From positions 4,270-68,269 of the forward strand of contig MHGF01000029.1 in the NCBI GenBank assembly GCA_001805445.1: a DNA stretch of 64,000 bases, written 5' to 3'. The notes beneath the pieces were generated by a model. It was not told the DNA's origin. It saw only the letters and a list, made by a program, of their open reading frames with translations, and made no database searches. A program made the translations under genes and the position numbers. Positions 14,641 to 36,229 of this stretch are shown here, in pieces. Source of the DNA: Omnitrophica WOR_2 bacterium GWF2_43_52 (GTDB lineage: Bacteria > Omnitrophota > Gorgyraeia > Gygaellales > UBA12090). Every line of letters starts with the position of its first letter. Position 1 is the first letter of the stretch.

Positions 14641-14961
14641 ATGAAAAAAATTGAGTGTATTGTCCGTGAGGAAAAACTGAAGGAGCTTACGCAAGCACTG
14701 CGCGAGGTAGGTATAGGCGGCATGACCGTAAGTGAAGTGCGGGGTTTTGGCGTGCAGACCCTGCGCCCTGAAAGTTTTCTTTTTGTGCATAAGGTAAAAA
14801 TAGAGATTTACGCCGCGGATTCACAGGTAAATGAAATTGTGGATACGGTTGTCTCCCATTGCGCTTCCGGGAAATTGGGCGATGGTAAGATCGCGGTGTT
14901 ACCGATGGAAGACTGTATCCGCGTGCGTACAGGAGCGCGTAAGCAAACGGCGCTATTTTAG
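14641..14961 (+). CDS. glnB: Nitrogen regulatory protein P-II
   Basis: MKKIECIVREEKL...GGMTVSEVRGFG is a canonical P-II fold. Adjacent to amtB. Confidence 0.85.
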   Translation: MKKIECIVREEKLKELTQALREVGIGGMTVSEVRGFGVQTLRPESFLFVHKVKIEIYAADSQVNEIVDTVVSHCASGKLGDGKIAVLPMEDCIRVRTGARKQTALF

Positions 14962-15004
14962 TTTTAAGGCTAACAAAGATTCACAAAAAAAAGGAGGAAG
15001 AAAG

Positions 15005-16234: not shown

Positions 16235-16296
16235 AGATTTCTTTAAAAATGAGGAGCAGCGCTGAACATGTTACATAGGAAGATGATAATTGTTGC

Positions 16297-16350
16297 GTGT
16301 ACCGCTCACCGTAACGGTAAACTGTTGGCGGTAAACGGTAAACGAAACAG
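16297..16350. repeat. Palindromic array with GTACCG/CGGTA core upstream of glnK
   Basis: gtgtaccg ctcaccg taacggta aactgttggcggta aacggta aacgaaac. Confidence 0.45.
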
Positions 16351-16373
16351 TATCTTTAAACAGAGGAGGTTAT

Positions 16374-16715
16374 ATGAAACTTATTATCGCGATTATTCAG
16401 CCGCATAAGTTAGAGGATGTCAAGGCTGAACTCTATAATACAGAAGTAAACCTTATTACCGTAAGTGAAGTTTTAGGCCATGGCCGGCAGAAGGGGGTCA
16501 CTGAGGTGTATCGCGCGGCAAGGGAAAAAGGAAACCTTTTACGAAAGGTTAAACTGGAAATTGCCGTTAACGATAATTTTGTCGAGCCAACCATAAAGGC
16601 GATTACTAAGGGCGCGCGGACAGGTGAGATAGGCGATGGTAAAATCTTTGTGTTAGATTTAAAAGATTGTGTCCGTATCCGCACCGAAGAACGCGGGCCT
16701 ATGGCTATAGGATAA
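16374..16715 (+). CDS. glnK: P-II family protein (GlnK-type)
   Basis: 113 aa P-II fold, directly downstream of amt. Confidence 0.85.
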
Positions 16716-17142
16716 AAGAGATGATGGAAGCCGCATGGCCTCTTGGGTGCGCGAGGGGAGGCCTGCGGTCAAGAAAATATGGGTTACCAAAGTAACCATA
16801 AAATTACTTATCATAATAATAAGGTTATGGTATACTCTTTTCTTGGCGGAAAGTGTAAAAAGGGCAAATCGGTTTGACCGTTAGCCCCTAGAGAGACAAA
16901 AAAATTACAGTAGTGCACTGTGAAATTAGTTCTCAATAGTTGACAGTGCACTAAGGGGGTGTGGGGAAGACCGTTACCCACGATTGGGGGGTGTTCAGCG
17001 TAGCCGACGATGAGTCGGCGGAGCGCCGAAGGGGGGCTTGCTCCCATAGCGGAAGTGCGGAGTTAACTTTCGCTATACTACCAATAATTAAGTTAACAGA
17101 GCACTAGTGCGGTAATATGTTAAAAGTGCCTGCCCACGGCTT

Positions 17143-17300
17143 CGCCGTGAGGCGAGCCGCAAGCAGGGATATCGGATGATCAGGGGATTGGGAGAAAAAG
17201 GTAATATTTTGTTCCCAATATCCTGATGCCCTGATTACCAAATCCTGATACCCTGATTGCCTGATTTCCGTATTTCACATCTATTATAACACATAGTATA
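17143..17300. repeat. Palindromic array of ATCAGGG/ATCGG units followed by CCTGAT units, upstream of glnN
   Basis: cagggatatcggatgatcaggggattggg ... cccaatatcctgat gccctgat taccaaat cctgat accctgat tgcctgat ttcc. It shares its 5' flank AGTGCGGTAATATGTT and 3' flank ACACATAGTATACGAG with the lrp-upstream element. Confidence 0.65.
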
Positions 17301-17316
17301 CGAGTGGAGGAGGATC

Positions 17317-19509: not shown

Positions 19510-19531
19510 CAGCCGCAGTGAAGGAAAAAAA

Positions 19532-19568
19532 GGGGAAACAGGAATAATGTTTCCCCTTTTTTTTCTTG
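19532..19568. terminator. Bidirectional rho-independent terminator after glnN
   Basis: aaaaaaa-ggggaaac-aggaataat-gtttcccc-tttttttt. Confidence 0.7.
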
Positions 19569-19738
19569 CCTAAAGCCCGACTTTGAGATATTATAAATAT
19601 TCGTTTAAGGAAAGGATAAGTGATAAATTATGAATGATAAATTTAAATTTTCCCCCCTCCATGTTTTTATGCAGGCTATTCTTGTCGTAAGGTACAACGT
19701 AAAACTTATCATTTATAACTTATAATTCATAATTTCTA

Positions 19739-22700
19739 ATGAACAGCCGTCAAAACTTAGAAAAATACGGGCTTTATGATTCGCGCTTTGAACATGATTC
19801 CTGCGGCGTGGGTTTTGTCTGCGACATTAAGGGAAGAAAGGCAAATGCCATTGTTACGCAGGGCGTAACTGTGCTTAAGCGCCTTTCGCATAGGGGCGCA
19901 ACCGGCGCGGATCCAAAAACAGGAGACGGGGCAGGGATACTTATTCAGACGCCTCATGAATTCTTTTGCAAAGCCGCGGAAGCCGCAAAAATTACCCTCC
20001 CGCCTTTTGGAGAATATGCTTCGGGTTTAGTGTTTTTGCCTACCAACGCCAAGGAAAGAAAGTTCTGCAAAGAAGTATTTGCCCAAAGTATAAAAAAAGA
20101 GGGGCAAACTCTCTTAGGCTTTAGAAAAGTTCCTGTTGATAGTTCTGTTATCGGTAAAGCGGCGCAAGATAGCCAGCCGGTGATTGAGCAGATATTTATT
20201 GGCAAAGATAGAAGTAATAGTACGGGGTTCAGGGGACAGCCTGCCTGCCGGCAAGGTAGGGGTTCAGGGGACAAGCCGCAGGCAAAAAGTCAAGAGTCTC
20301 TCGAATTTGAGAGGAAGCTTTATGTTATCCGAAAGCAGGTAGAAAATACCATTCGCTCGTCAAATTTAAAACAAAAATCATTCTTTTATATCCCTAATCT
20401 TTCCAGCCGCACGTTTTCCTATAAAGGCCTGCTGATGCCTGAGCAGGTGGATAAATTTTTCCTTGATTTGCAAGACGAGAGCATAAAAAGCGCGATCTGC
20501 CTGGTGCATTCACGGTATTCAACTAATACCTTCCCGACATGGGATTTGGCGCAGCCGTTTCGGTTCCTGGCGCACAATGGCGAGATAAATACCTTACGCG
20601 GCAATGTTAACTGGATGTCAGCGCGCGAGGGATTATTAAAAAGCGAGCTTTTCGGTAAAGATATTCAGAAGCTAAAGCCGGTTATCGTGCCAGGGGGAAG
20701 TGACTCGGCAATGCTGGATAACGCCTTTGAATTGCTTGTGCTTTCCGGAAGGCCCATTTATCATGCCATGATGATGTTGATTCCGGGCGCGTGGGAACAG
20801 CATGCGTTAATGGATGAGAAACTCAAAGACTTTTATAAATACCATGCCTGTTGTATGGAGCCGTGGGATGGCCCTGCCGCGATTGCCTTTACTGATGGTA
20901 TCCAAATAGGCGCGGTGCTCGACAGAAACGGCCTTCGCCCGGCGCGGTATGTGGTGACTAAGCAAGATTTAGTGGTTATGGCATCGGAAGTGGGGGTATT
21001 GGATATTCCTGCTTCAGACATTGTTACTTCAGGCAGGCTTGAACCGGGGAAGATGTTTTTTATAGATACCCAAGAGCAGCGCATTATTAACGATGATGAG
21101 GTAAAGCAGAGGGTATCCCGCCAACGGCCCTATGGAGCGTGGCTTAAGGAGAACCTGTTAGAGTTTGATGCGTTGACAAGAAAGACGAAGGACGTGGGAC
21201 GAAGGACGAAGGACGATTATGACATACTGACGCAACTCAAAGCTTTTGGGTATACTCGCGAAGATTTAAAAGTTATCATCAAGCCAATGGCTGAGGAAGG
21301 AAAAGAGCCTACGGGCTCAATGGGTAATGATGTGCCCCATGCCGTGCTTTCTAAGCATCCTCAGGTCCTGTATACTTATTTTAAACAACTCTTCGCCCAG
21401 GTTACCAATCCGGCGATAGACCCTATCAGAGAAGAATTGGTGATGAGCCTTTTTAGTTTTGTGGGCTCGCAGAAGAACATCCTGGATGAAACTCCGCAGC
21501 ACGCGCATAAATTACTGGTGAAAGAGCCCATTCTTACCAATGACGGCTTAGAGCGGTTTCGCGCAATCAAAGAAAAGGGGTTTAAATCCAAGATAATCTC
21601 TATACTTTCTCCCGCGGAAGGCGCGAAAAAAGATAAAAAAAGCGGCTTCCTAAAAACCCTTAACCGTATCTGCCAAGAGGCGGCCTCCGCTATAAAAAAA
21701 GGTTATAGTTTTATTATTTTAAGCGACCGTGGGGTGAATAAAAACTATATGGCCTTACCCGCGCTTTTAGCGGTGGGCGCGGTGCATCATTATCTGGTCA
21801 AAAAGGCATTACGCACCCAAATCGGTATTATTTTAGAGGCTGCCGAGCCGCGGGAGGTGCATCATTTTGCTTTATTATTCGGTTATGGCGCTGATTGTAT
21901 TAATCCCTACTTGGCATATGAGGCAATTAAACACCTCATTAATGAAGGCCAGTTAAACTTAGAGCCTGAAAAGGCATTAGAAAATTACCGCCATGCCCTT
22001 GATAAAGGAATATTAAAAATACTCTCTAAAATGGGTATTTCAACCTTACAGAGTTATCGGGGCGCCCAGATATTCGAGGCTTTGGGGATACATCAGGAAG
22101 TCATTGACAAATGTTTTAGCGGGACTGTTTCGCGTATCGGCGGAGCCGGCTTTCAGGAAATTGCCGAGGAGACACTGCTTAGGCATACAGCCGCGTTTTC
22201 TGAAAATTTATTGCACTTCCCTTATTTAGCAAGCGGCGGCGTATATCAATGGAAAAAAGACGGAGAATACCATCTTTGGAATCCGGACACTATCGCCGCG
22301 TTACAGGATGCCGCCCGGCGCGGGGACCATAAGAAATATAAAGAATTCGCAAGCCTCATTAACGACCAGTCTAAAAATCCCACTACCTTACGAAGCCTGC
22401 TGAAATTTTTCTCCGAAGGCTCATCCGCCTCTGGCGGAAAACATACCAAAGCGATTTCTATAGACAAGGTTGAGCCGGCGCAGGCATTATTTAAGCGTTT
22501 GGCTACAGGAGCGATGAGTTTTGGCTCTATCTCCCGCGGCGCCCATGAAAATTTGGCCTTTGCCATGAATAAGCTTGGCGGCCGTTCAAACACCGGTGAA
22601 GGCGGCGAAAACCCTGAACGCTTTAAACCCCTTCCTAATGGTGCATCAGCTCGCAGTGCCATAAAGCAGGTAGCTTCGGGTAGGTTTGGGGTTACTGCCA

Positions 22701-24394
22701 ATTATTTAGTTAATGCAGATGAGCTGCAGATAAAGATTGCCCAAGGCGCAAAACCCGGAGAAGGAGGCCAGCTCCCCGGGCATAAGGTAAGCGCGATTAT
22801 CGCCAAAACCCGTTATACTACCCCGGGAGTAACCCTTATTTCACCGCCCCCGCATCATGATATTTACTCTATTGAAGACCTGGCGCAATTGATATTTGAT
22901 TTAAAGAATGCCAACCCCCGGGCGCGTATAAGCGTAAAATTAGTTTCAGAAATCGGCGTAGGAACCATTGCCGCGGGCGTGGCAAAGGGGCACGCGGATA
23001 TGATTTTGATTTCAGGTGGTGACGGCGGCACGGGAGCGTCTCCGGCGAGCTCGATTAAACATGCCGGGCTCCCCTGGGAATTGGGAATTTCTGAAACCCA
23101 TCAAACGCTTGTGCTTAACGATTTAAGGAGCCGGGTGCGCCTTCAGACAGACGGACAAATGCGTACCGGACGCGACATAGCGATAGCCGCGATTTTAGGG
23201 GCTGAGGAATACGGTTTCTGTACCGCGGCGTTAATCATTTCAGGGTGTGTGATGCTCCGGCACTGCCATTTGAATACCTGTTCTGTGGGGGTAGCCACGC
23301 AGGATGTGATGTTAGAAAAAAGATTTAGCGGCAAGCCCGAATACCTGGTTAATTATTTTACTTTCGTGGTAGAAGAATTGCGGGAGATTATGGCCTCTTT
23401 GGGGATAGCCAAGCTTGATGATATGATTGGCAGGACCGAGCTTTTAGAAGTTAATTCAGAAATTATTCCCTGGAAGGCGAAAAGAATAGACTATTCCCGT
23501 ATCTTGTATAAGCCTAAAGCCCCAAAATCTATCGGCACCTATTGCATGATTACCCAAGATCACGGTATTGATACAATCTTAGACCGTAAGCTGATTGAGC
23601 TTTCCAAACCCGCATTGGAAAAGGCTCAAGGAGTAACGATAACTTTACCCATTGAGAATGTGAACAGGACAACCGGAGCGATGTTAAGCGGTGAAGTCTG
23701 CAGGCGTTATGGCGAAGAGGCATTGCCCGATGGGACCATCACTTGTAAGTTTAAGGGAATCGCGGGGCAGAGCTTTGGGGCATTTTTGGCAAAGGGCATT
23801 ACCTTTGAGCTTGAGGGCATGGCAAATGATTATGTGGGTAAGGGTATTTCCGGCGGTAAAATTATTATCTATCCGGATAAGCGGGCAACATATGTCTCCG
23901 AAGAAAACATTATTATAGGAAATACCACTTTTTACGGGGCAATTACCGGCGAGGCATATATTCGCGGTGTTGCCGGTGAGCGCTTTTGTATACGAAATTC
24001 TGGGTTATTCTCGGTGGTAGAGGGCGTGGGTGACCACGGCTGTGAGTATATGACCGGCGGCAGGGTAATAGTGCTGGGTAGAACAGGACGAAATTTTGGC
24101 GCGGGTATGTCCGGCGGAATTGCGTATGTGTACGATAAAAATGGCGACTTCAAAAATAAGTGCAATATGGAGATGGTGGCATTAGAAAAGTCTGATGCCG
24201 ATGATGAGCTTACCATACGCGATTTACTGCATAATCATTACCGTTATACCAATAGCCCTGTGGCCAAGCAGATGCTTGATAATTTTAATGATACGCTCAA
24301 GAAATTTGTAAAGGTTATGCCGCTTGAGTATAAGCGGATTTTAGAACAGAAGAAGCTGGAGAAGAAGCTGGATTTGGCGGAAGTGTCGGATTGA
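19739..24394 (+). CDS. gltB: Glutamate synthase (GOGAT) large subunit
   Basis: 1551 aa. N-terminal amidotransferase Cys (MNSRQNLEKYGLYDSRFEHDSCGVGFV), FMN/Fe-S central domain, and a C-terminal GXGXG domain. Two in-frame low-complexity insertions are encoded by tandem repeats. Confidence 0.9.
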   Translation: MNSRQNLEKYGLYDSRFEHDSCGVGFVCDIKGRKANAIVTQGVTVLKRLSHRGATGADPKTGDGAGILIQTPHEFFCKAAEAAKITLPPFGEYASGLVFLPTNAKERKFCKEVFAQSIKKEGQTLLGFRKVPVDSSVIGKAAQDSQPVIEQIFIGKDRSNSTGFRGQPACRQGRGSGDKPQAKSQESLEFERKLYVIRKQVENTIRSSNLKQKSFFYIPNLSSRTFSYKGLLMPEQVDKFFLDLQDESIKSAICLVHSRYSTNTFPTWDLAQPFRFLAHNGEINTLRGNVNWMSAREGLLKSELFGKDIQKLKPVIVPGGSDSAMLDNAFELLVLSGRPIYHAMMMLIPGAWEQHALMDEKLKDFYKYHACCMEPWDGPAAIAFTDGIQIGAVLDRNGLRPARYVVTKQDLVVMASEVGVLDIPASDIVTSGRLEPGKMFFIDTQEQRIINDDEVKQRVSRQRPYGAWLKENLLEFDALTRKTKDVGRRTKDDYDILTQLKAFGYTREDLKVIIKPMAEEGKEPTGSMGNDVPHAVLSKHPQVLYTYFKQLFAQVTNPAIDPIREELVMSLFSFVGSQKNILDETPQHAHKLLVKEPILTNDGLERFRAIKEKGFKSKIISILSPAEGAKKDKKSGFLKTLNRICQEAASAIKKGYSFIILSDRGVNKNYMALPALLAVGAVHHYLVKKALRTQIGIILEAAEPREVHHFALLFGYGADCINPYLAYEAIKHLINEGQLNLEPEKALENYRHALDKGILKILSKMGISTLQSYRGAQIFEALGIHQEVIDKCFSGTVSRIGGAGFQEIAEETLLRHTAAFSENLLHFPYLASGGVYQWKKDGEYHLWNPDTIAALQDAARRGDHKKYKEFASLINDQSKNPTTLRSLLKFFSEGSSASGGKHTKAISIDKVEPAQALFKRLATGAMSFGSISRGAHENLAFAMNKLGGRSNTGEGGENPERFKPLPNGASARSAIKQVASGRFGVTANYLVNADELQIKIAQGAKPGEGGQLPGHKVSAIIAKTRYTTPGVTLISPPPHHDIYSIEDLAQLIFDLKNANPRARISVKLVSEIGVGTIAAGVAKGHADMILISGGDGGTGASPASSIKHAGLPWELGISETHQTLVLNDLRSRVRLQTDGQMRTGRDIAIAAILGAEEYGFCTAALIISGCVMLRHCHLNTCSVGVATQDVMLEKRFSGKPEYLVNYFTFVVEELREIMASLGIAKLDDMIGRTELLEVNSEIIPWKAKRIDYSRILYKPKAPKSIGTYCMITQDHGIDTILDRKLIELSKPALEKAQGVTITLPIENVNRTTGAMLSGEVCRRYGEEALPDGTITCKFKGIAGQSFGAFLAKGITFELEGMANDYVGKGISGGKIIIYPDKRATYVSEENIIIGNTTFYGAITGEAYIRGVAGERFCIRNSGLFSVVEGVGDHGCEYMTGGRVIVLGRTGRNFGAGMSGGIAYVYDKNGDFKNKCNMEMVALEKSDADDELTIRDLLHNHYRYTNSPVAKQMLDNFNDTLKKFVKVMPLEYKRILEQKKLEKKLDLAEVSD

Positions 24395-24404
24395 TAATAG
24401 TTGA

Positions 24405-24580
24405 ATAGTTACGCGGGTCCTGCCAGGGTTGTATTTTCGCAGGGACGTTCGTCCGCCGTAGGCGGACTCACTCGGCGTAAATTTTTGCACCCGCCACGGA
24501 AGTAATAGCGGGGCCAAGCTGCAAAAATTTTCGTACGCCCCGCTCAAACACAACCCTGTCACCCGCTATAAGTGTTAAGA
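24405..24580. repeat. Nested inverted repeats (about 170 nt) in the gltB-gltD spacer
   Basis: The outer pair is GCGGGTCCTGCCAGGGTTGT ... ACAACCCTGTCACCCGC. The inner pair is GGCGTAAATTTTTGCA ... TGCAAAAATTTTCGTACGCC, and a central hairpin is CCGCCGTAGGCGG. Confidence 0.55.
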
Positions 24581-24599
24581 ATTATTCGGAGAGTTCCTA

Positions 24600-26081
24600 A
24601 TGGCAGTTGATATCAAAGGTTTTTTAAAGGTGAAACGCGGGCATGCTGAATATCGGCCGGTCTGCGAGCGCGTTAAGGACTATAAGGAGGTCATTGTCTT
24701 AAGGAGCGCTTCGCAATCTGAGGAGCAAGGCTTGCGTTGTATGGACTGCGGCACGCCGTTTTGCCATTTTGGCTGCCCGGTTGGCAATTATATCCCGGAA
24801 TGGAATGAGTTGGTGGCATCCGGCAAGTGGCAGAAGGCATTTGAGCTCCTTAATGCCACTAATACTATGCCGGAGATTACCGGGAGGCTTTGCCCGGCAT
24901 TATGCGAATATGCTTGTGTATTAGGAATTAACGATGACCCTGTAACTATACGAGAGAATGAATTAGCAATTATAGAAACTGCCTTTAAAGAAGGATTTAT
25001 TAAGCCGCAGCCTCCTAAGAAGCTCACCGGAAAAAAGGTCGCGGTAGTCGGCTCAGGCCCCGCGGGGTTATCAACTGCCAGCCAGTTAAATAAAGCAGGC
25101 CATACGGTCGTGGTATTTGAAAAGTACACGCACGCAGGAGGTATTTTACGTTACGGCATCCCTGATTTTAAACTTGAGAAACGGGTGATTGATAGGCGCG
25201 TTGCTATCTGGAAAAAAGAAGGAATAAAGTTTAAGACCAATATTAATGTGGGTATAGATTATCCGGCCTCAAAATTATTAAAAGAATTTGACGCGGCCTG
25301 CCTTGCCGGCGGCTCAAGGGTTGCGCGCGATTTAAAGATAGAGGGCAGGGAATTAGCCGGGATTCATTTTGCCATGGATTATTTGATTCAGTCTAACCAG
25401 AGGGCTAGTGAAGAAAAACCAAACCCGCATTGGAAAAATTCCAATGCGGGTTTGGAAGTAGGTCAGCTTATTGATGCCAAAGGAAAGCGTGTATTGGTAA
25501 TCGGCGGAGGGGATACTGGTGCTGATTGCGTGGGGACTGCCAATAGGCAGGGCGCGTCTTGTGTGGTGCAGATAGAGGTTATGCCTAAGCCGCCTGAATG
25601 CCGCACTGAAGATATGCCCTGGCCAAGATATCCGATGCTGCTAAAAACTTCTTCAAGCCATGAAGAGGGTGGAGAGCGCCAATGGGCGGTTTTAACTAAA
25701 AAGTTTATCGGTGAAAATGGAAAGGTTACAAAGGTTTCTTGTGTAAGGGCGGAATTCCCGGGAAAAGACGCCAAAGGCTGCCCTGTGATGAGAGAGGTTG
25801 CGGGAAGCGAATTTGAGATTGAAGCGGACCTGGTAATTTTGGCAATAGGTTTTGTCCATCCCGAGCATGAAGGTTTGTTAAAAGGGTTAAAAATAGAGTT
25901 AGATTCCCGCGGTAACGTCAAAACCGACGAGAACTATATGACTTCCAAGAAGGGTGTGTTTTCCGCAGGCGATATGCGCAGGGGTCAATCCCTGATTGTC
26001 TGGGCAATCCACGAAGGCAGGCACGCAGCCCGCGCTATTGACGCCTACCTTATGGGTAAATCTTCATTACCCATTCTTTAA
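24600..26081 (+). CDS. gltD: Glutamate synthase small subunit (NADPH-dependent)
   Basis: 493 aa. N-terminal Fe-S Cys clusters (CMDCGTPFC, CPALCEYAC) and an FAD/NAD Rossmann motif (VAVVGSGPAGL). Confidence 0.9.
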   Translation: MAVDIKGFLKVKRGHAEYRPVCERVKDYKEVIVLRSASQSEEQGLRCMDCGTPFCHFGCPVGNYIPEWNELVASGKWQKAFELLNATNTMPEITGRLCPALCEYACVLGINDDPVTIRENELAIIETAFKEGFIKPQPPKKLTGKKVAVVGSGPAGLSTASQLNKAGHTVVVFEKYTHAGGILRYGIPDFKLEKRVIDRRVAIWKKEGIKFKTNINVGIDYPASKLLKEFDAACLAGGSRVARDLKIEGRELAGIHFAMDYLIQSNQRASEEKPNPHWKNSNAGLEVGQLIDAKGKRVLVIGGGDTGADCVGTANRQGASCVVQIEVMPKPPECRTEDMPWPRYPMLLKTSSSHEEGGERQWAVLTKKFIGENGKVTKVSCVRAEFPGKDAKGCPVMREVAGSEFEIEADLVILAIGFVHPEHEGLLKGLKIELDSRGNVKTDENYMTSKKGVFSAGDMRRGQSLIVWAIHEGRHAARAIDAYLMGKSSLPIL

Positions 26082-27127: not shown

Positions 27128-27206
27128 TAAATAAGTATTTAACAACAATTAGCTTATATATGTTGCTGGTGTATGGAGGTACGCCAACAACGTAACTAAT
27201 ATATAA

Positions 27207-27250
27207 TGCCGGATTGCCAAAAATGGTCAGTCCGGCATTTTTTATTTTTT
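27207..27250 (+). terminator. Rho-independent terminator/attenuator upstream of the giant gene
   Basis: tgccgga-ttgccaaaaatggtcag-tccggca followed by ttttttatttttt. Confidence 0.5.
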
Positions 27251-27361
27251 GTCCATAACCAAACCCCGCAACCTACGCGGTTGACTTTTTTCCCCGACGG
27301 TAAATTTCCGCAACCTCCGCGGTTGACTTTGGTAAGGGGTTTTTATAGGAGGATTACAAAG

Positions 27362-30300
27362 ATGGTACGTAAGATAATCTCAATAGTAGTAACGATAGGC
27401 TTACTCTTTAACCAAGGCGGGGTTATTTATGCCGCGGGTGAACTTAACCTTTCAAGCTATCTTAGCCAGTTGCATACGAGCCTGGTTAAGCCCGATATCT
27501 TCCGGCCGGTGCACCTGCGCTATTTCTCCTATGACAGCCTGAATAACAGCTACAAGATACTCTTGGATAAAGGAGACTACACCAAGTCACCAAGTCACCA
27601 GGACACCCCCGACGCTTCGGTCGGGGCAGGCAGGTCACCAGAAGAAGATCTCGTGCTCAAGGAAACTGCCCAGGAGTTGATGGACTACTTCCTGATAGGA
27701 GTAACTCTCCCCAATGATACTTTTTGGGTAAACCTAAGGCCTGATGCCCCGGATACCATCATAGACCCTGAGTTAGAGACAACCGATATAGGTAAGATAT
27801 TCCTTGAGGCCGACCTCCAGCTCAAGAAGGATACCGCGAGCTTTACTTCACCCCAAACCCCTGAAGGCAAACAGTATTGGGATAAACTCTATAAAAAGGC
27901 AGGGGAATTATTTGGCTCGGAGAATATTACCATACCTACCTTAACCCGCCCATGGATAGTGCCCAATGAAATCATCGTAAGAGAAACAGATGATTCGGCC
28001 TATGTGTACAAAGCAACGCTTAAGGTGTTGCTGGAAGAAGATTATCTAAAAAGCTCTCAGCCTTCAGCTCTCAGCCCTCAGCAATACAATTTTAAAGATT
28101 CAAGGTTAAAAGAGCTCAATGAATACTCTACCCAGCTTATCAGAGAAACTATAATTCCTAAGCTTACCAGAGAGGTAAACTCAAGCCAAAGGTATGCTAA
28201 GTTACGGCAGGTATACTATTCGCTGATACTTTCAAGATGGTTTAAGGCTCGTTTTAATAGTAAAGAGTCACAAGGTCACCAAGTCACAAGGTCACAAGGA
28301 GAAAATTACATTAATTTAATTGATAGGCGTAATCTCACTAACCTTACCTCAGAAGAACTATGGGATAAGATTACCTATTTTAACCAATACAAAGACTCCT
28401 TCAACAAAGGTGAATATAATATCAAGGAACCTACGTTTACTGCCTACGGCCAGAGTATCAGGAGTTATACCAGCGGGGGGATTGGCATTGGGCAAGCGAT
28501 ATTACCTTTTGAAGCTGATATGCAAGGTCAAGGCGCAGGGAGTCCAATACGGGGAGGAAGTTTTCAAGGGAATAATCCTGTTATTTCTGATGCGGTAATT
28601 GGCGCAGATGAAAAGAGTATAGTTTTAGATGAAAATCTTGAAGTTGTTGAACAGAAGCCTGTTGCCCTCGCCGCCTCGCCGGTGACTGTTGAAGATGCAG
28701 ATCAAAAGATTCTGGATATTCTTGAAGAAGAATTTATTTCAGATATTTTCCCAAAAGATGTGGTAGAGAAGTTTAAAGAATATAAAAGCATTAAAATTAG
28801 CAAATTTAGCAATATTGATAAGGATGTTGGAATGCCCCATGCAAGAAAAGATATAGAGAAATTATCCAGAATAAAAGGCTTTCTTAGGTATGTTATGAAT
28901 GAGTACACTAAAATAAAAGAAAAAGATGAGACCCGAGCGCGGGTACTCCTTAATAAGATAAAAATCTTGCAAGAATATCTAGAACAAGCATTAGGTGGAG
29001 AATTGTCAGTGCTTAAGGAATTTGCCGCTAATATTAATGCTGGAAAAATAACAGTTATTAGCGTTGCCATATTAAAGCAATGGGAAAAATTAATGGCTGA
29101 TATGCTTATTTCTGAAAGATACCACGCATTTGTTAAGCATTTGACTAAGAGAAATATAGAATTCTCTCGGGCAGGGAGCCTGATGAAGATATTGAACTTA
29201 GAAAGAGCAGGTAAGCGCGCCACGCAATTTAAAATTAAAGCTGGAGAGACTCTCGAGAAAAAATATAACCCCGGAGATAAATTTATTTTCAACGATGTTT
29301 TGCCGGATATTGCTTTAGGAATTAACTTTGGGGGGATACTTACTGATATAATAGTAAACGCTAATCCGCTCTTGTGGGGAAATGTGCTTATTCTTCCCGA
29401 TCCCAGTAAGTGCCTTAGCCAATATTTTAACAAAGAAGCAGCGATAGTAGCTCTTAATTTATTGGATAAGTTTAACAACCCGGGTTATAAACTAGGATTT
29501 AATGGCCCTGGGGCTTTTGCTTCTGTCCCTCAACTTCATCTGCAGGGATTTGATTATTTTGACAGCACTGGAGAAGATAAATTGCCCGTAGAAAACGCTG
29601 AAAAAACTTCTTTTTTCAGCAATAACAACGTATCCATTATGACTCTATCAGATTGGGCAGTCAATACCATTGTTTTAAACGGTAGTTCATTAGATTCATT
29701 AAACAAAGCGCTGGTATTACTTACCGATATATTGCATAAACGTAATCAACCGTTTAATATCGTTTTCACAAAAAATAGTGATAACAACTATGCTGTGTAT
29801 GTTTTTCCTAGAAAGCTGGAAGGCCCTGGGGGGGTTTTTGGCACAGGCGTTGCATTTTTAGAGTTAGCCGGAGCAGTATTGTTTACTAATCAGAATTTTG
29901 GCGGAGTGATGTTAAAAGATAAAGATAAAGAAAATCTTGAACAGCGCATAGCTTATCTTAAAAACATACGTCAGATAATATTTGGGGGTGGGACTATTGC
30001 AGAAGACCTCGTTCAGAGTGTTGGACTCGATTGGAAGGATGTTTCCAGCAAATTGATCGAAAATGGTTGGGCGAAGCCAAAAAATAAAACAGAAGTGACT
30101 TTAACAGCAAGTTTGGAACAGGTAAAAGACAGCATGTCAAGAGTTTTTGGTGATAAATGGGAAAAAATTATCTCAATCCTGGAGATTGATGACTTTCGTT
30201 ATGAAAATGAAAAAAACAAAGACGGTGATTATGTTTATTATGCTCGTCCCAAGAGAAGCGGTGAAAGCAAAGAAATTACCCCGTCGGATCTTAGCAATAA

Positions 30301-33300
30301 ATTTATGCACTATATTGATTTATCAAATATAGTGGAAATTCTTTATCAGAAAGCTGGGAGAGAGCCAGAGTTGAGAAAGTATTATGAGAAGATAACAAGC
30401 GAGTTTTATAAGGAAAAATCAGTAGATAATTACAAACAAGCTGAAGAAGATGATTTGCGAAAAGATATTGCCGCCGTGGGGATAGATGATGGCACATTTG
30501 AGAAAATTTTAGAAGTTTATAAAGATCAGTTAGTAAATTTATTCTCTGCCGCCTCGCCGCTGACAACGTTGAAGGAGAAGATAAGCGGGGTGTTCGAGAA
30601 AATACAGGAAAAGATAAATGACCAAGGACTCTTAAATTATAAAGAAGAATTAGCATCATTCTTGGAGAATTTAGAAAAAGATTTAGAAAGGCCGTTAAAT
30701 GAGATAGATAATGTTGTGAACGGGCAAGGCACTCTAAAAGATGCTTTTAGCGCGATTGAAAAAATATCAACTATTCTATTTAATAAGGAAGGTGAAATAG
30801 GCAGTATCCATACCGATATCAAGTCTATGATGGTAAGTTTGCACAGGTATGAACTGCCATCGCTTATGAGGCAAATTGAAAAGAGCCTTGGGCAGAGGGA
30901 AATCACCGCCTCGCCGCTGACGAAACAGACCGTAAAAGATGTACAATTTAACCCAGGAGAAAAGGTGTTCTTGCGCGCTGAGGTTAATATGCCAACCGAT
31001 GAGCAAAGAAATATCACTGACTATACGCGCCTTAAACAGGCGTTACCTACTATCAAATATTTGATAGGACAAGGAGTGAAGCTTGTTATTGCAGGACACC
31101 TGGGCCGGCCGCAGGAGGAGAAAAACAAGGATTTCAGTTTAGATATAGTAGCTCAGGCTCTACGATCTGAGTTGCCAGGAGTAACCATTACATTTGACAA
31201 GACAATCTTTACCCCTAAAGACGCGGAAGGTTTTATTAATTCCGAGATGAAAAACGGGGATATTTTACTTTTAGAAAACGTCCGGATGAATAAAGATGAA
31301 GAACAAAAAGAAGGGATTAATAGCCAATTCGCCAAAGATTTGTTTTTTGGCATAGATAAATATGTTTCAGATGCCTTTGGGGTTATGCATAGAGAAAACA
31401 ATGTTTCAATGGTTGGCGCTCCTAAGGGGATGCCGCGTGTTGCCGGGCTTTTAGTCCAGAAGGAAATAGAGTACCTGAATAAGATTTTGAATCCTGATGT
31501 GGCAATTGTCGGAGGAGCAAAAGTATCCGATAAAATTAAAATAATAGAGAAGCTTTTAGAAAAAGCGGATAAAATTCTTATTGGCGGGGCAATGACATTC
31601 GCTTTTGAAAAAGCCATGGGGAAAGATATTGGCAATTCTAAGCTTGGTAAGAATAAGGAAGAGGCAGAAAGAGAAACGCAATTTGCAAGGCAGCTTCTTG
31701 AAAAGGCGAAAGGAAAAATAATCCTTCCTTTGGATCATATAGTTGCAGATAGATTTAATAATGATGCGGAAAGAAAATCTGCGGAGTCAGGCAAGATCCC
31801 TGACGGCTGGATGGGCTTAGACATTGGCCCTGAGACTATTAAGCATTACAGAGCAATCATTGAGGAGGCGGAAACAGTTATCTGGAACGGCCCTATGGGG
31901 GTATTTGAATTTGATAATTTTGAGCAAGGCACGAGAGTAATAGCCGAGGCAATGGCAGTGGTAAAGAAAAAAGGCGGTATCGCGGTGGTAGGAGGGGGAG
32001 ATTCTGCTTTCGCGGTAGAGAAGTTTGGGCTAGCTGGTGAAATGTCACACGTATCTACAGGAGGAGGCGCGGCCTTAAAGTTTATCGAAGATGATGGCAA
32101 TTTGCCAGGAATTCTAGTGTTAAGTGATAAAGTAGAGGGCATCACCGCCGGCCTGCTGGGAGAAGAAATGTCGGGGGTGTATGGCGAGAATGCGCAGCCT
32201 TTACGCTATGTTTCTGTTGAAGATTTAACTGAGGGGGAACTTAGCTCTTTGAGAAGTTCCATCGTTGAGCGGATGACGTTGTCTGCAAGGGAAACGGATA
32301 ATACATATAAAAATGCGCGCTTTGCGGTTGAAATAGACCAAGGTAAGATTATTGTCTGGGGGAGGTTGGAATATAATGAAAAGACAAATGCAATAAGCCA
32401 GATTATCTTCCCGAACGCTCTAAACCTGAGCGAAGATAAGAAAAAAGATATAGAGGCTGCCTTTATTCAGGCATGGGATGAAGAATCGAAAATAAATGTT
32501 CTTTACACCGCCTCGCCGTTAGAATCTACTCCAGAGATATATGTGTTGGATAATCATCTATCGCTTGCAGAAGGAGCTAAAACCGGGAAGGCTAATATTG
32601 GGCTTGCTAAATCTAGCCTATACGATGGAGGAATTTTAAATCATTCTGAGGAGCGTGCCAGGCTTGAGTGGGCTATAGGGAATGTATTAGGAAGAATACT
32701 TTATTTTGGGTATGAGCGGTTTGACAGTGAACTTAACCGCATGGTTTTTGCTGATGAAGCAGTAGGAATTTGGAAAGCAACTTTAGCAACCGAAGGTATA
32801 TCCGAAACTGATTATAAAGAATATTTTGATCTTCAAAAAGAAAAGGACAAGATTAATCGTGATAATCTGCAAGATAGCGCACGCTCTATAGTGAACAGAA
32901 TAATTAATCTTCAGTTGAAAAAACTAATAGCTTCTACAAAGGGGGAAAAGGGGTATCCAGTCAAACAAGTTGTACTTTGCGTTGGTGAGGATTTAGGTCA
33001 GCGTTACGCAGGGCGGACGCAGGATGTTTTAAGGCAGGACATAAAGGAAATTTTAAAGGACATAATGAAAGAAGATGTGCAGAAATATGGGGGTATTGGT
33101 TTGAGGATAGCCTATGAGCCGCGCTGGGCAATTGGAACAGGCAAAACGCCTACATTGGAAGAGATTCAGAATGCGCATAGATTTATAAAAGATACTCTAA
33201 AAAGCGCAGGAGTACTAGGCATAGAGCTTGATGTTGATTATGGCGGAAGCTTAAACGCAAAGAACAAAGAGATATTATCTTTGCCTGACGTTGACGGTGG

Positions 33301-36229
33301 GCTTATTGGCAGTGCTGCCAAAACCGTTGAGGCAATCAAACCGGTTATAGAGGAAGCGATTATTCAAGGGGAGAAAAAGGGGAAAATCCTCAATATCGGG
33401 ATGAACTGGAAGGCTGAAAATAGAGGAACTGGTTTAGCCCCGCTGGGAAGCTTTATGGCATTTTTCAAGAGCCCTGGTTTTAATATTGTGGGTAAGCTAA
33501 GCATAGCCATTGGAACTACCCGGGTTAGAGATGTTAAAATGGCAGTATTGGGGGTTAAAGAGTATTATAAAAAAATTTACCAAGCAGCCGCCTCGCCGCT
33601 GGCGCTGGAGAATGAAGTGAAGGTGATACAGGAAGTAAGAGAAAAATTAAATGCATATCATAGCGGTACTATACTGCAATTCTCAAACGTATCGCTATCG
33701 AACCTTATAATATCAGTCACAAAGATGGCTAACGAAATTCAGCCAATGAATCGTATGGCTTTACCCGAAGAAGCACAAAAATGGTTTGGTATTGAAGCAG
33801 GGCTTGTACGGATTCAGGCCAAAGTCAGAGAAAATATGGAAGCATATAAAAAAGAGTTGGCAGCTTTTTATGCGGAAATCGGGCAGCATTCATATATTAA
33901 ATTGGATGAAGAGCAGAAATTATACTACACTAATAAATATGCCCGTGATATTGAAACGACGAATGACGTAGATGTAATTATTGAAGCGGCAGAACATGCC
34001 TATCGGCTGCGGGAGACTTATTTAGCGCAAGAGGCACAAAAAAAGATTGTTTCTCAGGGTAATACTTCCGCCGCCTCACCGTTGACGCTTAAGGAATTCT
34101 CTAAAAAGCTTGATCAGATGCCTAATAATAAAGTGTCGTCTCACGAAGCATTTTTAGAATTAATTAAGATGGCATCAGAGCTTTCAGCCCGGGAGGAGAT
34201 ACCGGAAAATATCCAAGAGAAAATATACGCGGCAGTCAGCCGTATCATGCCTGTGGCAGGTGAATATGTTGATAAAGAGCGTAAGGATATCCCCGGGCAG
34301 GCCCGTACTATAGAACCTATCCTGGCTATAATTGAAAGCGGATTAGAAAATTATATGGTTAAAGAGGATATGGGGTTTAAATTAGTGGACGCTATTGAGA
34401 AGGCCTTAACAGGGCATCTTGCCTATTCAAGGTATACACAACAGATAGATGATGTAATAACCGCAATAAAAAAAGATCATATTAAGATAGAAAAGATTCA
34501 AGAGTTTATTAAAGATTCGTTTAGCCAGTATGATGGCATTAAAGATGCGATTGATTTTAAGAGCGGAGAAATCGCGGAGTTGCTTGAGAAAAATAAAGAG
34601 GCTAATGCATTACTCGCGTCAGTAAGGCAGGCAAAGGAGATAACCGCTAAGCAAAGCGGCAATACAATCAAAGGCACGTATATAGACCAATCCCTCTTTG
34701 ACGCTATGGCTTGGGATATAATGATCCAAAGAGTAAGAATCGATAAATTAGAGGAAATTCTGGATGAACAGGTGAGCCGGACGAATCAATTTTTTACCAG
34801 TGATTCTATCAAGCTTTTCTGTAAGGAGTTTAAGGAAGCAGGCAAAACCGGGAAAAAACGCGTATTAGTTTCCAGGTTTAATGAAATCCGGGAAGAGGGC
34901 TCAAGAACCGATAGCGAATTGATCCAGCTAAGAGATTACTTAGCCGGGATTTTAGGAGTATATTATTTAAAAGCGGCTGAGGAGGTAAGAAGCAAGCTTA
35001 CGCCACAGGATACAGTAGAATATAAAGAAGCCCTTGATGCGGCAGGACAAGTTATTGATCTTCTTCTTAAAGGTAACGTAAAGGATCAGTTGTTTTCCGC
35101 GCAATTAGATACCGTTGTCAAGGCGTGGGATAGTATGCAAAAATCCCGTTCATCGTCGGCGCTTACCGCTGAAGAATTTATTCTTGCGGTAGATGCTCTT
35201 GGGAAAATGGCCAAAGAGAAGACGATCTCATATGAAACTGCTTTTGACAGAATGGTAGGAGCGGTTTCGGCTCTTGAAAAAGATGTAGTGGTTCCTTATG
35301 CTAAAATAGCCGATGAGTTGTATTCAATAATTCACAATGGGGTGGCGCTTGACCCTTATAGGTTAACTCTCTGGGAAGATGCCAAAGAAACGTTGTTAAG
35401 AAGGAAGAAATATGCCAGAGAGGGCATTCTTGATATGATTGAAAAAAGATTAGAGATATATAAGCGTGATTTAGCGCAGAAAGCGGGTAAAGATCTTAGC
35501 AAGTGGATAGGCGCGCTCACCGCTCACTTAGGCGCAGGTATCCGCGACTATAAAGAACACATAAACTCTATTAAAAGTACTGAGGATTTATTGTTGACTA
35601 AGGTTCAAGAGTTTTCTTCGGTCAATCGAGCGGTACAGAAGAAAGAATGGTCTGATGATAAAGAGAAGTATTATGAAGCTATGAAAAGGAAAGGCGTTTC
35701 TATTGACGAATTGAAAGGGAAATTGGATGAGATAGATAAATATAACGAATTCCTCTTAACAGTAGCTAAAGCGCGAGAAGCCATCTCTGCCGGCCAAAAA
35801 TCGTCTTCGTCGTCGCTTGTCGCTCAAGAGCCTGCTCAAGACTTTGCTATCCCTGAAGCCCAAAATACCTTCGGTGGTATTGATATGACCGACAGGGCGC
35901 TGCATATTAACTTTGAGCGCTGGGGAAGCCTTGCGGATATAGAGATGGAGCTGCCAAAACTCAGTCATGTGGAAGCGATTGATTTAGACAATGAATACCA
36001 GCAGATACAGGCCATGGCCTCATCCGGCATCAGGCCTTCAGATACGCGTATTTTGGAGTTTATCGCCGCCTGCTATTATAGGGAAGAATTTAGCCAAAGG
36101 CTTTCTGAAATCACCGCCTGCCTTAAAGAAGCGCATGCCTTGGATGAGCGTGAGGGAAAAGAAAGCAGCGAGACCCTGCGTTTAGCCACCTTGCTCCCTG
36201 ATGCGTTGTACGTAAATAGCCTGAATTAA
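27362..36229 (+). CDS. Giant secreted multidomain protein (~2,955 aa) containing a phosphoglycerate-kinase domain and a triosephosphate-isomerase-like domain
   Basis: RBS AGGAGG precedes the ATG at 27362. A signal peptide (MVRKIISIVVTIGLLFNQGGVIYA) is present. The PGK motifs are HLGRPQ, IVGGAKVSDKIKIIEKLLEKADKILIGGAMTFAF, GGGDS and STGGGA. The TIM motifs are AYEPRWAIGTGKTPT and YGGSLN...VDGGLIGSAA. The conserved N- and C-terminal domains are shared with the 813-aa paralog. Confidence 0.8.
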   Translation: MVRKIISIVVTIGLLFNQGGVIYAAGELNLSSYLSQLHTSLVKPDIFRPVHLRYFSYDSLNNSYKILLDKGDYTKSPSHQDTPDASVGAGRSPEEDLVLKETAQELMDYFLIGVTLPNDTFWVNLRPDAPDTIIDPELETTDIGKIFLEADLQLKKDTASFTSPQTPEGKQYWDKLYKKAGELFGSENITIPTLTRPWIVPNEIIVRETDDSAYVYKATLKVLLEEDYLKSSQPSALSPQQYNFKDSRLKELNEYSTQLIRETIIPKLTREVNSSQRYAKLRQVYYSLILSRWFKARFNSKESQGHQVTRSQGENYINLIDRRNLTNLTSEELWDKITYFNQYKDSFNKGEYNIKEPTFTAYGQSIRSYTSGGIGIGQAILPFEADMQGQGAGSPIRGGSFQGNNPVISDAVIGADEKSIVLDENLEVVEQKPVALAASPVTVEDADQKILDILEEEFISDIFPKDVVEKFKEYKSIKISKFSNIDKDVGMPHARKDIEKLSRIKGFLRYVMNEYTKIKEKDETRARVLLNKIKILQEYLEQALGGELSVLKEFAANINAGKITVISVAILKQWEKLMADMLISERYHAFVKHLTKRNIEFSRAGSLMKILNLERAGKRATQFKIKAGETLEKKYNPGDKFIFNDVLPDIALGINFGGILTDIIVNANPLLWGNVLILPDPSKCLSQYFNKEAAIVALNLLDKFNNPGYKLGFNGPGAFASVPQLHLQGFDYFDSTGEDKLPVENAEKTSFFSNNNVSIMTLSDWAVNTIVLNGSSLDSLNKALVLLTDILHKRNQPFNIVFTKNSDNNYAVYVFPRKLEGPGGVFGTGVAFLELAGAVLFTNQNFGGVMLKDKDKENLEQRIAYLKNIRQIIFGGGTIAEDLVQSVGLDWKDVSSKLIENGWAKPKNKTEVTLTASLEQVKDSMSRVFGDKWEKIISILEIDDFRYENEKNKDGDYVYYARPKRSGESKEITPSDLSNKFMHYIDLSNIVEILYQKAGREPELRKYYEKITSEFYKEKSVDNYKQAEEDDLRKDIAAVGIDDGTFEKILEVYKDQLVNLFSAASPLTTLKEKISGVFEKIQEKINDQGLLNYKEELASFLENLEKDLERPLNEIDNVVNGQGTLKDAFSAIEKISTILFNKEGEIGSIHTDIKSMMVSLHRYELPSLMRQIEKSLGQREITASPLTKQTVKDVQFNPGEKVFLRAEVNMPTDEQRNITDYTRLKQALPTIKYLIGQGVKLVIAGHLGRPQEEKNKDFSLDIVAQALRSELPGVTITFDKTIFTPKDAEGFINSEMKNGDILLLENVRMNKDEEQKEGINSQFAKDLFFGIDKYVSDAFGVMHRENNVSMVGAPKGMPRVAGLLVQKEIEYLNKILNPDVAIVGGAKVSDKIKIIEKLLEKADKILIGGAMTFAFEKAMGKDIGNSKLGKNKEEAERETQFARQLLEKAKGKIILPLDHIVADRFNNDAERKSAESGKIPDGWMGLDIGPETIKHYRAIIEEAETVIWNGPMGVFEFDNFEQGTRVIAEAMAVVKKKGGIAVVGGGDSAFAVEKFGLAGEMSHVSTGGGAALKFIEDDGNLPGILVLSDKVEGITAGLLGEEMSGVYGENAQPLRYVSVEDLTEGELSSLRSSIVERMTLSARETDNTYKNARFAVEIDQGKIIVWGRLEYNEKTNAISQIIFPNALNLSEDKKKDIEAAFIQAWDEESKINVLYTASPLESTPEIYVLDNHLSLAEGAKTGKANIGLAKSSLYDGGILNHSEERARLEWAIGNVLGRILYFGYERFDSELNRMVFADEAVGIWKATLATEGISETDYKEYFDLQKEKDKINRDNLQDSARSIVNRIINLQLKKLIASTKGEKGYPVKQVVLCVGEDLGQRYAGRTQDVLRQDIKEILKDIMKEDVQKYGGIGLRIAYEPRWAIGTGKTPTLEEIQNAHRFIKDTLKSAGVLGIELDVDYGGSLNAKNKEILSLPDVDGGLIGSAAKTVEAIKPVIEEAIIQGEKKGKILNIGMNWKAENRGTGLAPLGSFMAFFKSPGFNIVGKLSIAIGTTRVRDVKMAVLGVKEYYKKIYQAAASPLALENEVKVIQEVREKLNAYHSGTILQFSNVSLSNLIISVTKMANEIQPMNRMALPEEAQKWFGIEAGLVRIQAKVRENMEAYKKELAAFYAEIGQHSYIKLDEEQKLYYTNKYARDIETTNDVDVIIEAAEHAYRLRETYLAQEAQKKIVSQGNTSAASPLTLKEFSKKLDQMPNNKVSSHEAFLELIKMASELSAREEIPENIQEKIYAAVSRIMPVAGEYVDKERKDIPGQARTIEPILAIIESGLENYMVKEDMGFKLVDAIEKALTGHLAYSRYTQQIDDVITAIKKDHIKIEKIQEFIKDSFSQYDGIKDAIDFKSGEIAELLEKNKEANALLASVRQAKEITAKQSGNTIKGTYIDQSLFDAMAWDIMIQRVRIDKLEEILDEQVSRTNQFFTSDSIKLFCKEFKEAGKTGKKRVLVSRFNEIREEGSRTDSELIQLRDYLAGILGVYYLKAAEEVRSKLTPQDTVEYKEALDAAGQVIDLLLKGNVKDQLFSAQLDTVVKAWDSMQKSRSSSALTAEEFILAVDALGKMAKEKTISYETAFDRMVGAVSALEKDVVVPYAKIADELYSIIHNGVALDPYRLTLWEDAKETLLRRKKYAREGILDMIEKRLEIYKRDLAQKAGKDLSKWIGALTAHLGAGIRDYKEHINSIKSTEDLLLTKVQEFSSVNRAVQKKEWSDDKEKYYEAMKRKGVSIDELKGKLDEIDKYNEFLLTVAKAREAISAGQKSSSSSLVAQEPAQDFAIPEAQNTFGGIDMTDRALHINFERWGSLADIEMELPKLSHVEAIDLDNEYQQIQAMASSGIRPSDTRILEFIAACYYREEFSQRLSEITACLKEAHALDEREGKESSETLRLATLLPDALYVNSLN

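Follow-up and report, generated by a model that had tools for sequence, protein, structure and literature searches.

Short conserved sequences can delimit segments of a gene that are exchanged in evolution. In polymorphic toxins, the peptides VENN (in CdiA) and PxxxxDPxGL (in Rhs proteins) border the conserved part of the protein and its exchangeable modules, and the DNA encoding these peptides has been proposed to guide the recombination that swaps the modules. In Borrelia burgdorferi, 17-bp direct repeats flank the cassette region of vlsE, where gene conversion from a silent array of homologous cassettes results in antigenic variation. This report concerns a G+C-rich motif of 17 nt that recurs within a giant gene of Omnitrophica WOR_2 bacterium GWF2_43_52. 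The gene encodes the protein OGX20759.1 and lies in a stretch of 64,000 nucleotides (GenBank assembly GCA_001805445.1, contig MHGF01000029.1, positions 4,270 to 68,269 of the forward strand), which was analysed as a whole and is called the window; positions are counted from its first letter. The Omnitrophota are uncultured nanobacteria noted for giant, puzzling genes.

Very long proteins of this phylum have been described by West-Roberts et al. (bioRxiv 10.1101/2023.11.21.568195). These 'Archaeovorins' reach 30,000 aa and more and contain C39 and S8 peptidase domains. Their cleavage into several products was proposed, and the cleavage points were stated as unknown.

The motif in the giant gene is very likely one instance of a junction motif that borders modules throughout a protein family, with breakpoints that coincide with the exchange of modules. 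The 17-mer would be the form that this junction signal takes in the DNA of the giant gene, and its nucleotide identity would reflect copying linked to recombination. The probability of this reading is put at roughly 0.55.

An exact copy of the 17-mer GCCGCCTCGCCGCTGAC lies at 30548; the copies at 28670, 30905 and 33587 differ from it at one base, and the copy at 34070 at two. Allowing up to three mismatches, it has five matches in the 64 kb against 0.11 expected, a number reached by none of 100 shuffled sequences. The copy at 32507 has five mismatches to the 17-mer, yet keeps the 11-mer core CCGCCTCGCCG intact. This core is exact at 28671, 30549, 30906, 32508 and 33588, and has one mismatch at 34071. 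It has seven matches in the 64 kb (0.58 expected), with no exact copy outside the giant gene; the sole near-match outside the gene is on the minus strand at 63831. The absence of copies outside the gene in the 64 kb rules out a genome-wide signal of the Chi type. The initial annotation of the window had reported the six-fold recurrence correctly, and its start positions are right for three copies (28670, 30548 and 32507) and one base too high for the others (30906, 33588 and 34071, in frame 30905, 33587 and 34070). All six copies are read in frame 0 of the open reading frame (ORF) at 27206-36229, giving AASPV, AASPL, TASPL, TASPL, AASPL and AASPL. Two degenerate junctions follow them.

28670-28686, forward strand: junction copy 1, GCC GCC TCG CCG GTG AC (AASPV), at the start of module 1.
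30548-30564, forward strand: junction copy 2, GCC GCC TCG CCG CTG AC (AASPL), the exact 17-mer.
30905-30921, forward strand: junction copy 3, ACC GCC TCG CCG CTG AC (TASPL), immediately 5' of the first residues of the phosphoglycerate kinase (PGK) domain.
32507-32523, forward strand: junction copy 4, ACC GCC TCG CCG TTA GA (TASPLE), with an exact core and a diverged 3' part.
33587-33603, forward strand: junction copy 5, GCC GCC TCG CCG CTG GC (AASPLA).
34070-34086, forward strand: junction copy 6, GCC GCC TCA CCG TTG AC (AASPLT).
35150-35164, forward strand: degenerate Ser-Ala junction, TCA TCG TCG GCG CTT (SSSAL), with a TCG-GCG core that fits the ASSAV variant of the family.
35807-35821, forward strand: degenerate junction immediately 5' of the C-domain, TCG TCG TCG CTT GTC (SSSSLV).

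The two degenerate junctions, SSSAL at 35150 and SSSSL at 35807, are both rich in TCG. The motif is 82% G+C, compared with about 40% for the giant gene, and the flanks of the copies share no nucleotide similarity.

The codons of the copies are more alike than their peptides require. GCC accounts for 28% of Ala codons in the window, TCG for 14% of Ser codons and CCG for 33% of Pro codons. With this codon usage, the probability of GCC in all six copies, TCG in at least five of the six and CCG in all six is 1.6e-10. The summed pairwise identity of the copies is 196 of 225. When codons for the six fixed peptides were drawn 200,000 times from the window's own codon usage, the mean was 139 and the maximum 182; no trial equalled the observed value. 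Both the near-identity of the codons and a conservation exceeding the needs of the peptide had been claimed from the initial reading of the sequence. Both claims hold, the latter across the family and not in the giant gene alone. In five of the six copies the +1 frame meets a stop (TGA or TAG) that straddles the codon after Pro (28682-28687, 30560-30565, 30917-30922, 32519-32524 and 34082-34087); these stops are probably a by-product of the NTG-A and TTA-G codon pairs.

The giant gene belongs to a family specific to the Omnitrophota, whose members consist of a signal peptide, a conserved N-domain, variable cargo and a conserved C-domain. The N-domain is a conserved region of about 330 aa (FWVNLRPD ... 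SL[IV][LM][SA][RQ]WFK ... RSYxSGG) that follows a signal-peptide-like start. Residues 96-425 of the giant protein are 63-74% identical to family members, with E-values down to 1e-272, and its C-domain (GGID...) is 50-69% identical to the C-domains of the relatives L001 and L006. In between are six canonical and two degenerate junctions of the form [AS][SAG]S[PA][LVIM], and cargo that includes PGK, triosephosphate isomerase (TIM) and a GDPGP1-like module. In a set of 1.84 billion representative proteins, 7,644 clusters (50% identity) match an N-domain profile; among solved structures (PDB), the N-domain has no relative in sequence or fold. Hundreds of relatives have the same N- and C-domains with differing cargo. 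This cargo includes PGK, TIM, GAPDH, enolase, phosphoglycerate mutase, aldolase (FBA), PPDK, transketolase, HEAT and TPR repeats, DnaJ, NUDIX and more. Core enzymes of glycolysis and gluconeogenesis thus ride behind a signal-peptide-like N-terminus and an orphan N-domain in this family of about 7,600 clusters.

Cargo modules carry the pentapeptide [A/S/T]-[A/S/G]-S-[P/A]-[L/V/I/M] at their N-terminal edge. In 240 relatives, [AS]SP[LVIM] occurs 520 times against 46 expected, and the wider pattern [ASG]S[PA][LVIM] is found 1275 times in 317 proteins (245 expected), its copies a median of 213 aa apart. The junction peptide [A/S]-[S/A/G]-S-[P/A]-[L/V/I/M] is enriched 5-11 fold across the family, at module borders. 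For instance, TASPLT is directly followed by the N-terminus of PGK in the giant protein, and the motif also stands immediately 5' of the enzyme domain in several other members that carry PGK. Glu and Asp are enriched at positions +3 to +6 after the motif.

A single-sequence AlphaFold model of residues 1073-1282 has one helix ending 3-5 residues before the motif and the next starting at its Pro, with Ser as the cap. Module 2 is a four-helix bundle in this model (pLDDT 70-89). Judged by the model, the motif would fit a linker that stops one helix and starts another. Such a linker role had been suggested in the initial annotation, and is supported in part: the peptide is enriched 5-11 fold and stands directly before each module, and the modelled helices stop and start around it. 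In the helix N-capping box, Ser or Thr occupies the N-cap, Pro the N1 position and an acidic residue N3-N4. The junction pattern S-P-hydrophobic-x-x-E/D resembles this box, as does the start of the modelled helix at Pro. However, a capping box alone explains neither the conserved A-[S/A/G] that precedes it nor the codon preference.

Codon bias at the junctions extends well beyond the giant gene. For this comparison, 76 loci from many Omnitrophota genomes were fetched by protein, and 80 family genes were extracted with ORFs taken from stop to stop. In these genes from other genomes, the motif Ser is encoded by TCG in 53% of cases (background 10%), the Pro by CCG in 58% (28%), the preceding Ala by GCC in 68% (28%) and the Leu by CTG in 40% (14%). 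TCGCCG makes up 43% of motif Ser-Pro pairs, compared with 7% of Ser-Pro pairs outside the motif, whether in these genes or in their neighbours; this 7% in the controls rules out genome codon usage or Ser-Pro context as the cause. The Ser-Ala variant (ASSAV) uses TCGGCG in 33% of cases versus 1.8% elsewhere. Nucleotide information is limited to about -7 to +8, some fifteen bases that read GCC-(A/G)(G/C)Y-TCG-CCG-(G/C)T(G). Neither rarity nor G+C content by itself accounts for the preferred codons: GCC, CCG and AGC are common, and GCC is chosen over GCG, TCG over TCC and CCG over CCC.

The bias differs between classes of junction. Internal junctions carry it (TCGCCG 30%, TCGGCG 18%), and their codons are biased to GCC-(GCC/AGC/GGC)-TCG-(C/G)CG-(C/G)TG, with about half of them lacking the conserved core. 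At the ancient junction before the C-domain the codons are mixed or drifted. The end of the N-domain has a motif-like xxSP[IL] that uses AGY-CCN without TCG-CCG bias, both in the equivalents in relatives and in the window, where AGSPI at 28535-28549 has AGT-CCA codons and not the junction codons. This motif behaves as a separate, older element. Stronger purifying selection on synonymous sites of the junctions between orthologues was looked for and not seen. Synonymous conservation in aligned internal junctions, compared with flanks, is 0.65 versus 0.70 in close pairs, 0.40 versus 0.49 in intermediate pairs and 0.39 versus 0.31 in distant pairs.

Comparisons between relatives show that gains, losses, replacements and re-orderings of modules break exactly at the motif. 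The relatives L045 and L073 (75-80% identity) are mosaics whose blocks of homology begin and end at motif copies. A stretch of about 1,090 aa is found in L073 alone, where a degenerate copy (GAMPI) borders it on the left and a canonical one on the right; the corresponding point of L045 has just one copy. L031 and L032 share a module of about 145 aa (81.6% DNA identity) between unrelated flanks, and their shared modules are in opposite order. Homology of this module starts directly after GCC AGC TCG G.. and stops directly before GCC AGC TCG CC... From junction to junction, the DNA of module 2 in the window gene (aa 1115-1233) has 78% identity to that of aa 719-841 of L006 in another genome, where the neighbouring modules are different. 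The two repeats flanking module 2 in the window gene are identical over 16 nt and closer to each other than to their L006 counterparts. Of all internal BLAST block ends, 26.5% lie no more than 10 aa from a motif, compared with 5.9 +- 0.6% for random positions. The idea that the motifs are cassette boundaries, raised in the initial annotation, is supported by these blocks and by the presence of the same module in varied contexts and orders.

Within each gene, the junctions tend to share one version of the motif, here called a dialect. In an unbiased count of repeated in-frame 10-mers, junction variants top the list in many genes: CCGCCTCGCCG five times in the window gene, C-AGC-TCG-CCG seven times in L038, GCC-AGT-TCG-GCG-GTG five times in L011, GCC-AGC-TCG-GCG-GT five times in L032 and GGC-TCG-CCG-CTG three times in L002. 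Internal junctions of one gene agree at 9.29 of 15 positions, compared with 8.27 +- 0.13 after permutation, and the effect persists if the window gene is left out. With gene labels permuted within genomes only, the values are 9.75 and 8.95 +- 0.14, and none of 2000 permutations reaches the observed one. Pairs of junctions within a gene that agree in a residue also agree in its codon at a frequency of 0.50, versus 0.39 +- 0.02. Adjacent junctions resemble each other more than non-adjacent junctions of the same gene (p about 0.001).

Different dialects can be found in a single genome. A2Y00_09970, a second family gene in the window's own genome, has ASSAV junctions, unlike the AASPL of the giant gene; on the L077 contig, whose product is 99.95% identical to A2Y00_09970, the junction codons AGC-TCG-GCG-GTR occur three times. 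Two dialects in one genome are not predicted by a shared tRNA pool or by a genome-wide recognition factor. A further family gene lies in the window itself.

46169-48610, forward strand: 813-aa paralog A2Y00_10745, with the same N- and C-domains as the giant gene.
47780-47794 and 48188-48202, forward strand: junctions of the paralog (GSSPL and AASPL), with codons that differ from those of the giant gene.

The paralog junctions read GSSPLA (GGC TCT TCG CCT CTT GCG) at 47780 and AASPLA (GCA GCA AGC CCT CTT GCA) at 48188. Two degenerate copies had been noted in this gene; the first was placed correctly, and the second begins at 48188 instead of 48193. The C-domain of the giant protein (aa 2868-3007) is 38% identical to that of the paralog (E 3e-20). 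In many genes (L011, L030, L031, L032, L045 and the window gene), Ser-Pro junctions lie toward the N-terminus and Ser-Ala junctions (ASSAV, TCG-GCG) toward the C-terminus. The window gene follows this order with six Ser-Pro junctions, then SSSAL and SSSSL.

The proposed explanation has two layers. As a peptide, the motif would be a minimal linker that closes one module and N-caps the next helix, Ser forming the cap and Pro or Ala opening the helix; it may double as a processing site. At the DNA level, an island of 12-17 G+C-rich nucleotides in A+T-rich genes could provide short homology for the in-frame insertion, deletion and exchange of cassettes. A cassette that recombines into an existing junction, by microhomology or short-homology annealing, would leave two copies of the recipient's junction, and deletion between direct repeats would be the reverse reaction. 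Duplication of the recipient's junction would yield gene-specific dialects as well as the six near-identical copies in the window. Older junctions, for example the one that precedes the C-domain and those in the conserved 813-aa paralog, would keep the peptide and drift at synonymous sites. The favoured reading is that the codon bias would arise when a junction originates, and not through ongoing selection. A process that copies junctions is favoured because synonymous sites are no better kept than the flanks, because the oldest junctions have drifted, and because of the dialects and the breakpoints. Tandem pairs of family genes are frequent in other genomes (L004, L008, L009, L015, L043 and L049). 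Arrays of this kind would supply substrates for recombination from junction to junction.

Several points weigh against this explanation. The recombination mechanism is one that we infer, and no recombination event was directly observed; two other assemblies of the giant gene are 100% identical to it and show no structural variation. A homology of 12-17 nt is short for recombination of the RecA type, so that a route by microhomology, annealing or a site-specific enzyme must be assumed. No recombinase, transposase or integrase is found in the 64-kb window, the rest of the genome not having been searched. Breakpoints in linkers would also be expected if selection removes recombinants cut inside domains. 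The motif is not universal, as some large family members have no copy at all. The junction structure comes from a model predicted on a single sequence, with modest confidence. Finally, the sampled metagenome-assembled genomes include close relatives, and counts from them are not fully independent.

The codon preference could instead act in translation, NNC-NNC-UCG-CCG-NUG slowing or tuning the ribosome at module borders for co-translational folding or processing. The bias is particular to the motif and runs through the whole family, TCG is used least among the Ser codons (10-14%) and CTG is a minor Leu codon, and the motif sits exactly at the domain borders of very long proteins. Yet GCC, CCG and AGC are not rare here, and the dialects include residue changes with identical codons. 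Nor does the tRNA pool predict these changes or the difference between two genes of one genome. With synonymous sites of aligned junctions no more conserved than flanks and no bias at the ancient junction before the C-domain, a translation signal is unlikely. The G+C-rich 12-mer might also form one arm of a conserved mRNA hairpin or belong to a known RNA element, as a G+C-rich island within A+T-rich sequence could suggest. The folding energies of the six contexts equal those of shuffled controls and their pairing partners differ, which does not support the hairpin. There is no complementary copy nearby, no conservation beyond the motif and no Rfam match apart from one sub-threshold chance hit, leaving an RNA structure with next to no probability.

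A dedicated sequence-specific enzyme would account for the core C-TCG-SCG, which is kept over many genomes while the flanks vary. It could be a site-specific recombinase that moves or deletes cassettes, or a nuclease or RNase that cuts DNA or mRNA at CTCG(C/G)CG. The copies are all direct repeats that share their orientation and frame, and module order differs between genes. However, no recombinase or nuclease gene lies near the giant gene, the core is missing from about half of the internal junctions, the site has neither inverted arms nor an extended structure, and the assemblies of the giant gene are identical. Such an enzyme is decidedly unlikely. The same can be said of a bolder proposal, a dedicated mechanism for in-frame module shuffling ('integron for protein domains') centred on a CTCG(C/G)CG site, in which the peptide ASSP[LV] would also guide polyprotein processing. 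If true, metabolic enzymes could be plugged into, or removed from, exported carrier proteins through this site, and the polyprotein could be split into separate enzymes. A motif that matters only as a peptide, whether as protease or processing site or as linker, would owe its nucleotide identity to recent common ancestry of the linkers through duplication or local gene conversion. The peptide is indeed kept where codons differ (in the paralog and before the C-domain), and cleavage of giant Omnitrophota proteins is proposed in the preprint of West-Roberts et al. (10.1101/2023.11.21.568195). Against this, the modules are not duplicates and their flanks lack similarity, and no protease or peptidase family is detected in the giant protein or the neighbouring genes. 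The codon bias recurs in unrelated genes of many genomes and therefore contradicts a peptide-only reading as a full explanation; such a reading is very improbable.

The layout of the giant gene is as follows.

27206-36229, forward strand: giant ORF of 3007 aa (OGX20759.1, named 'phosphoglycerate kinase' by NCBI), with signal peptide, N-domain, seven cargo or helical modules and C-domain.
27362-28669, forward strand: signal-peptide-like start and conserved N-domain (FWVNLRPD ... RSYTSGG; about 60-75% identity in the family), then a Gly-rich tail.
28670-30547, forward strand: module 1 (aa 489-1114), GDPGP1-like (HIT/GalT-type) by precomputed Pfam matches PF26217/PF26216.
30548-30904, forward strand: module 2 (aa 1115-1233), a predicted four-helix bundle between perfect direct repeats of 16 nt.
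30905-32506, forward strand: module 3, a full-length phosphoglycerate kinase (Pfam PGK, aa 1244-1628) with a C-terminal extension of about 130 aa.
32507-33586, forward strand: module 4 (aa 1768-2127), triosephosphate-isomerase-like; Pfam TIM matches the C-terminal half alone (aa 1921-2049).
35807-36226, forward strand: conserved C-terminal domain (GGID... motif), 38% identical to the C-domain of the paralog.

Three further helical modules lie between the TIM-like module and the C-domain. The true start of the protein is probably Met53 at 27362, and the 3007-aa model of NCBI probably too long. The first 52 codons of the ORF (27206-27361; MPDCQKWSV...) precede the signal-peptide-like start, and the gene calls of ENA and JGI give 2955 aa, beginning at the second Met with MVRKIISIVVTIGLLF... 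For module 1, precomputed Pfam lists GDPGP1_N and GDPGP1_C (similar to GDP-D-glucose phosphorylase; PF26217/PF26216), and a local hmmscan of the segment found no match at E<=0.1. In the TIM-like module, only positions 118-243 of the Pfam TIM profile are matched. Its N-terminal portion of about 150 aa has diverged, apparently with a large insertion; an NHSEER stretch is kept, and LDNHLS stands where GNWK is usual. This TIM may be an altered or inactive enzyme.

No significant similarity was found among the eight inter-motif segments by self-comparison with blastp and blastn, and the motif copies themselves are the only DNA repeats among them. Recent module duplication, one of the origins suggested in the initial annotation, is ruled out for the giant gene, and a reading as a tandem-duplicated repeat protein is rejected. 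Of the two findings that the initial annotation named as refuting its reading, one is borne out, as the segments are not homologous, and the other is not, as the motif is strongly enriched in the gene and in its family. In a few relatives some modules are paralogous, and most modules are not. No DNA resembling the modules occurs elsewhere in the 64 kb, apart from the N-domain of the paralog, and the giant gene has no full-length orthologues beyond near-identical assemblies. In L079 (GCA_001804385.1, MHFW01000145.1; GWA2_44_7 assembly), a run of N at 430-500 lies in the Gly-rich region after the N-domain. The 'partial' annotation of L079 is due to this scaffold gap, and does not reflect a structural variant.

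The neighbouring genes in the window are of the housekeeping type: ammonium transporter, glutamine synthetase III, glutamate synthase, ATP synthase operon, CTP synthase, LpxB, S2/EF-Ts and components of the phosphotransferase system (PTS). Such neighbours throughout rule out a mobile-element context. A nitrogen-assimilation cluster (ammonium transporter, type III glutamine synthetase, and the large and small subunits of glutamate synthase; 14831-26081) lies immediately upstream of the giant gene, and an F-type ATP synthase operon immediately downstream. An ORF of 647 aa at 10391-12334 has no Pfam match and adjoins two HD-domain proteins. The tRNA genes of the window (Lys, Leu and Gly only) are uninformative.

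The motif offers a simple delimiter, readable from sequence, for the modules of thousands of giant and uncharacterised Omnitrophota proteins, with evidence that modules, core glycolytic enzymes included, are exchanged at it. A linker of five codons that is conserved down to the codons themselves, in gene-specific dialects, is an unusual signature of the ways in which multi-domain genes can be assembled. The analysis also draws attention to a large uncharacterised family that carries glycolytic enzymes behind a signal peptide.

Several known systems share features with the Omnitrophota family. Like the polymorphic toxins CdiA and Rhs, it has a short conserved peptide, with conserved DNA, at the border of exchangeable modules. 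Unlike them, it has many junctions instead of one, carries housekeeping-type enzymes and helical modules as cargo, and conserves its C-terminus. At the giant gene no toxin domain, immunity gene or orphan cassette array was detected, and an ATP synthase operon follows downstream. In-frame direct repeats of about 17 nt that bound recombining segments recall vlsE. However, the modules of the giant gene are non-homologous and exchange is seen on evolutionary time scales only; the 64-kb window contains no silent cassette array of the vls or pil type. Integrons and shufflons are not matched either: the window, the only part of the genome searched, has no recombinase, and the motif is a direct repeat lacking inverted arms.

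The PGK and TIM modules can be compared with the bifunctional PGK-TIM fusion of the Thermotoga type (NCBIfam PRK13962), in which PGK is followed by TIM in one polypeptide. The giant protein has the same order and scores 504 bits, below the cut-off of 883, matching only positions 2-395 of the 645-position model. Its PGK and TIM are, in contrast to the fusion, parted by the extension of about 130 aa and a junction motif inside a 3007-aa protein, and its TIM matches in the C-terminal half alone.

The Archaeovorins are from the same phylum, and likewise combine several domains in a very long chain that has a signal peptide or is associated with the membrane. By description, their HEAT, TPR, PPDK, NUDIX and GGDEF cargo is also found in relatives within the giant gene's family. 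However, West-Roberts et al. (10.1101/2023.11.21.568195) describe neither the N-domain family nor the junction motif nor its codon conservation, and a literature search found no paper on any of the three. The Omnitrophota N-domain family, its motif and the codon conservation appear to be without published description, and conserved junctions that delimit exchangeable modules are in themselves a known kind of element.

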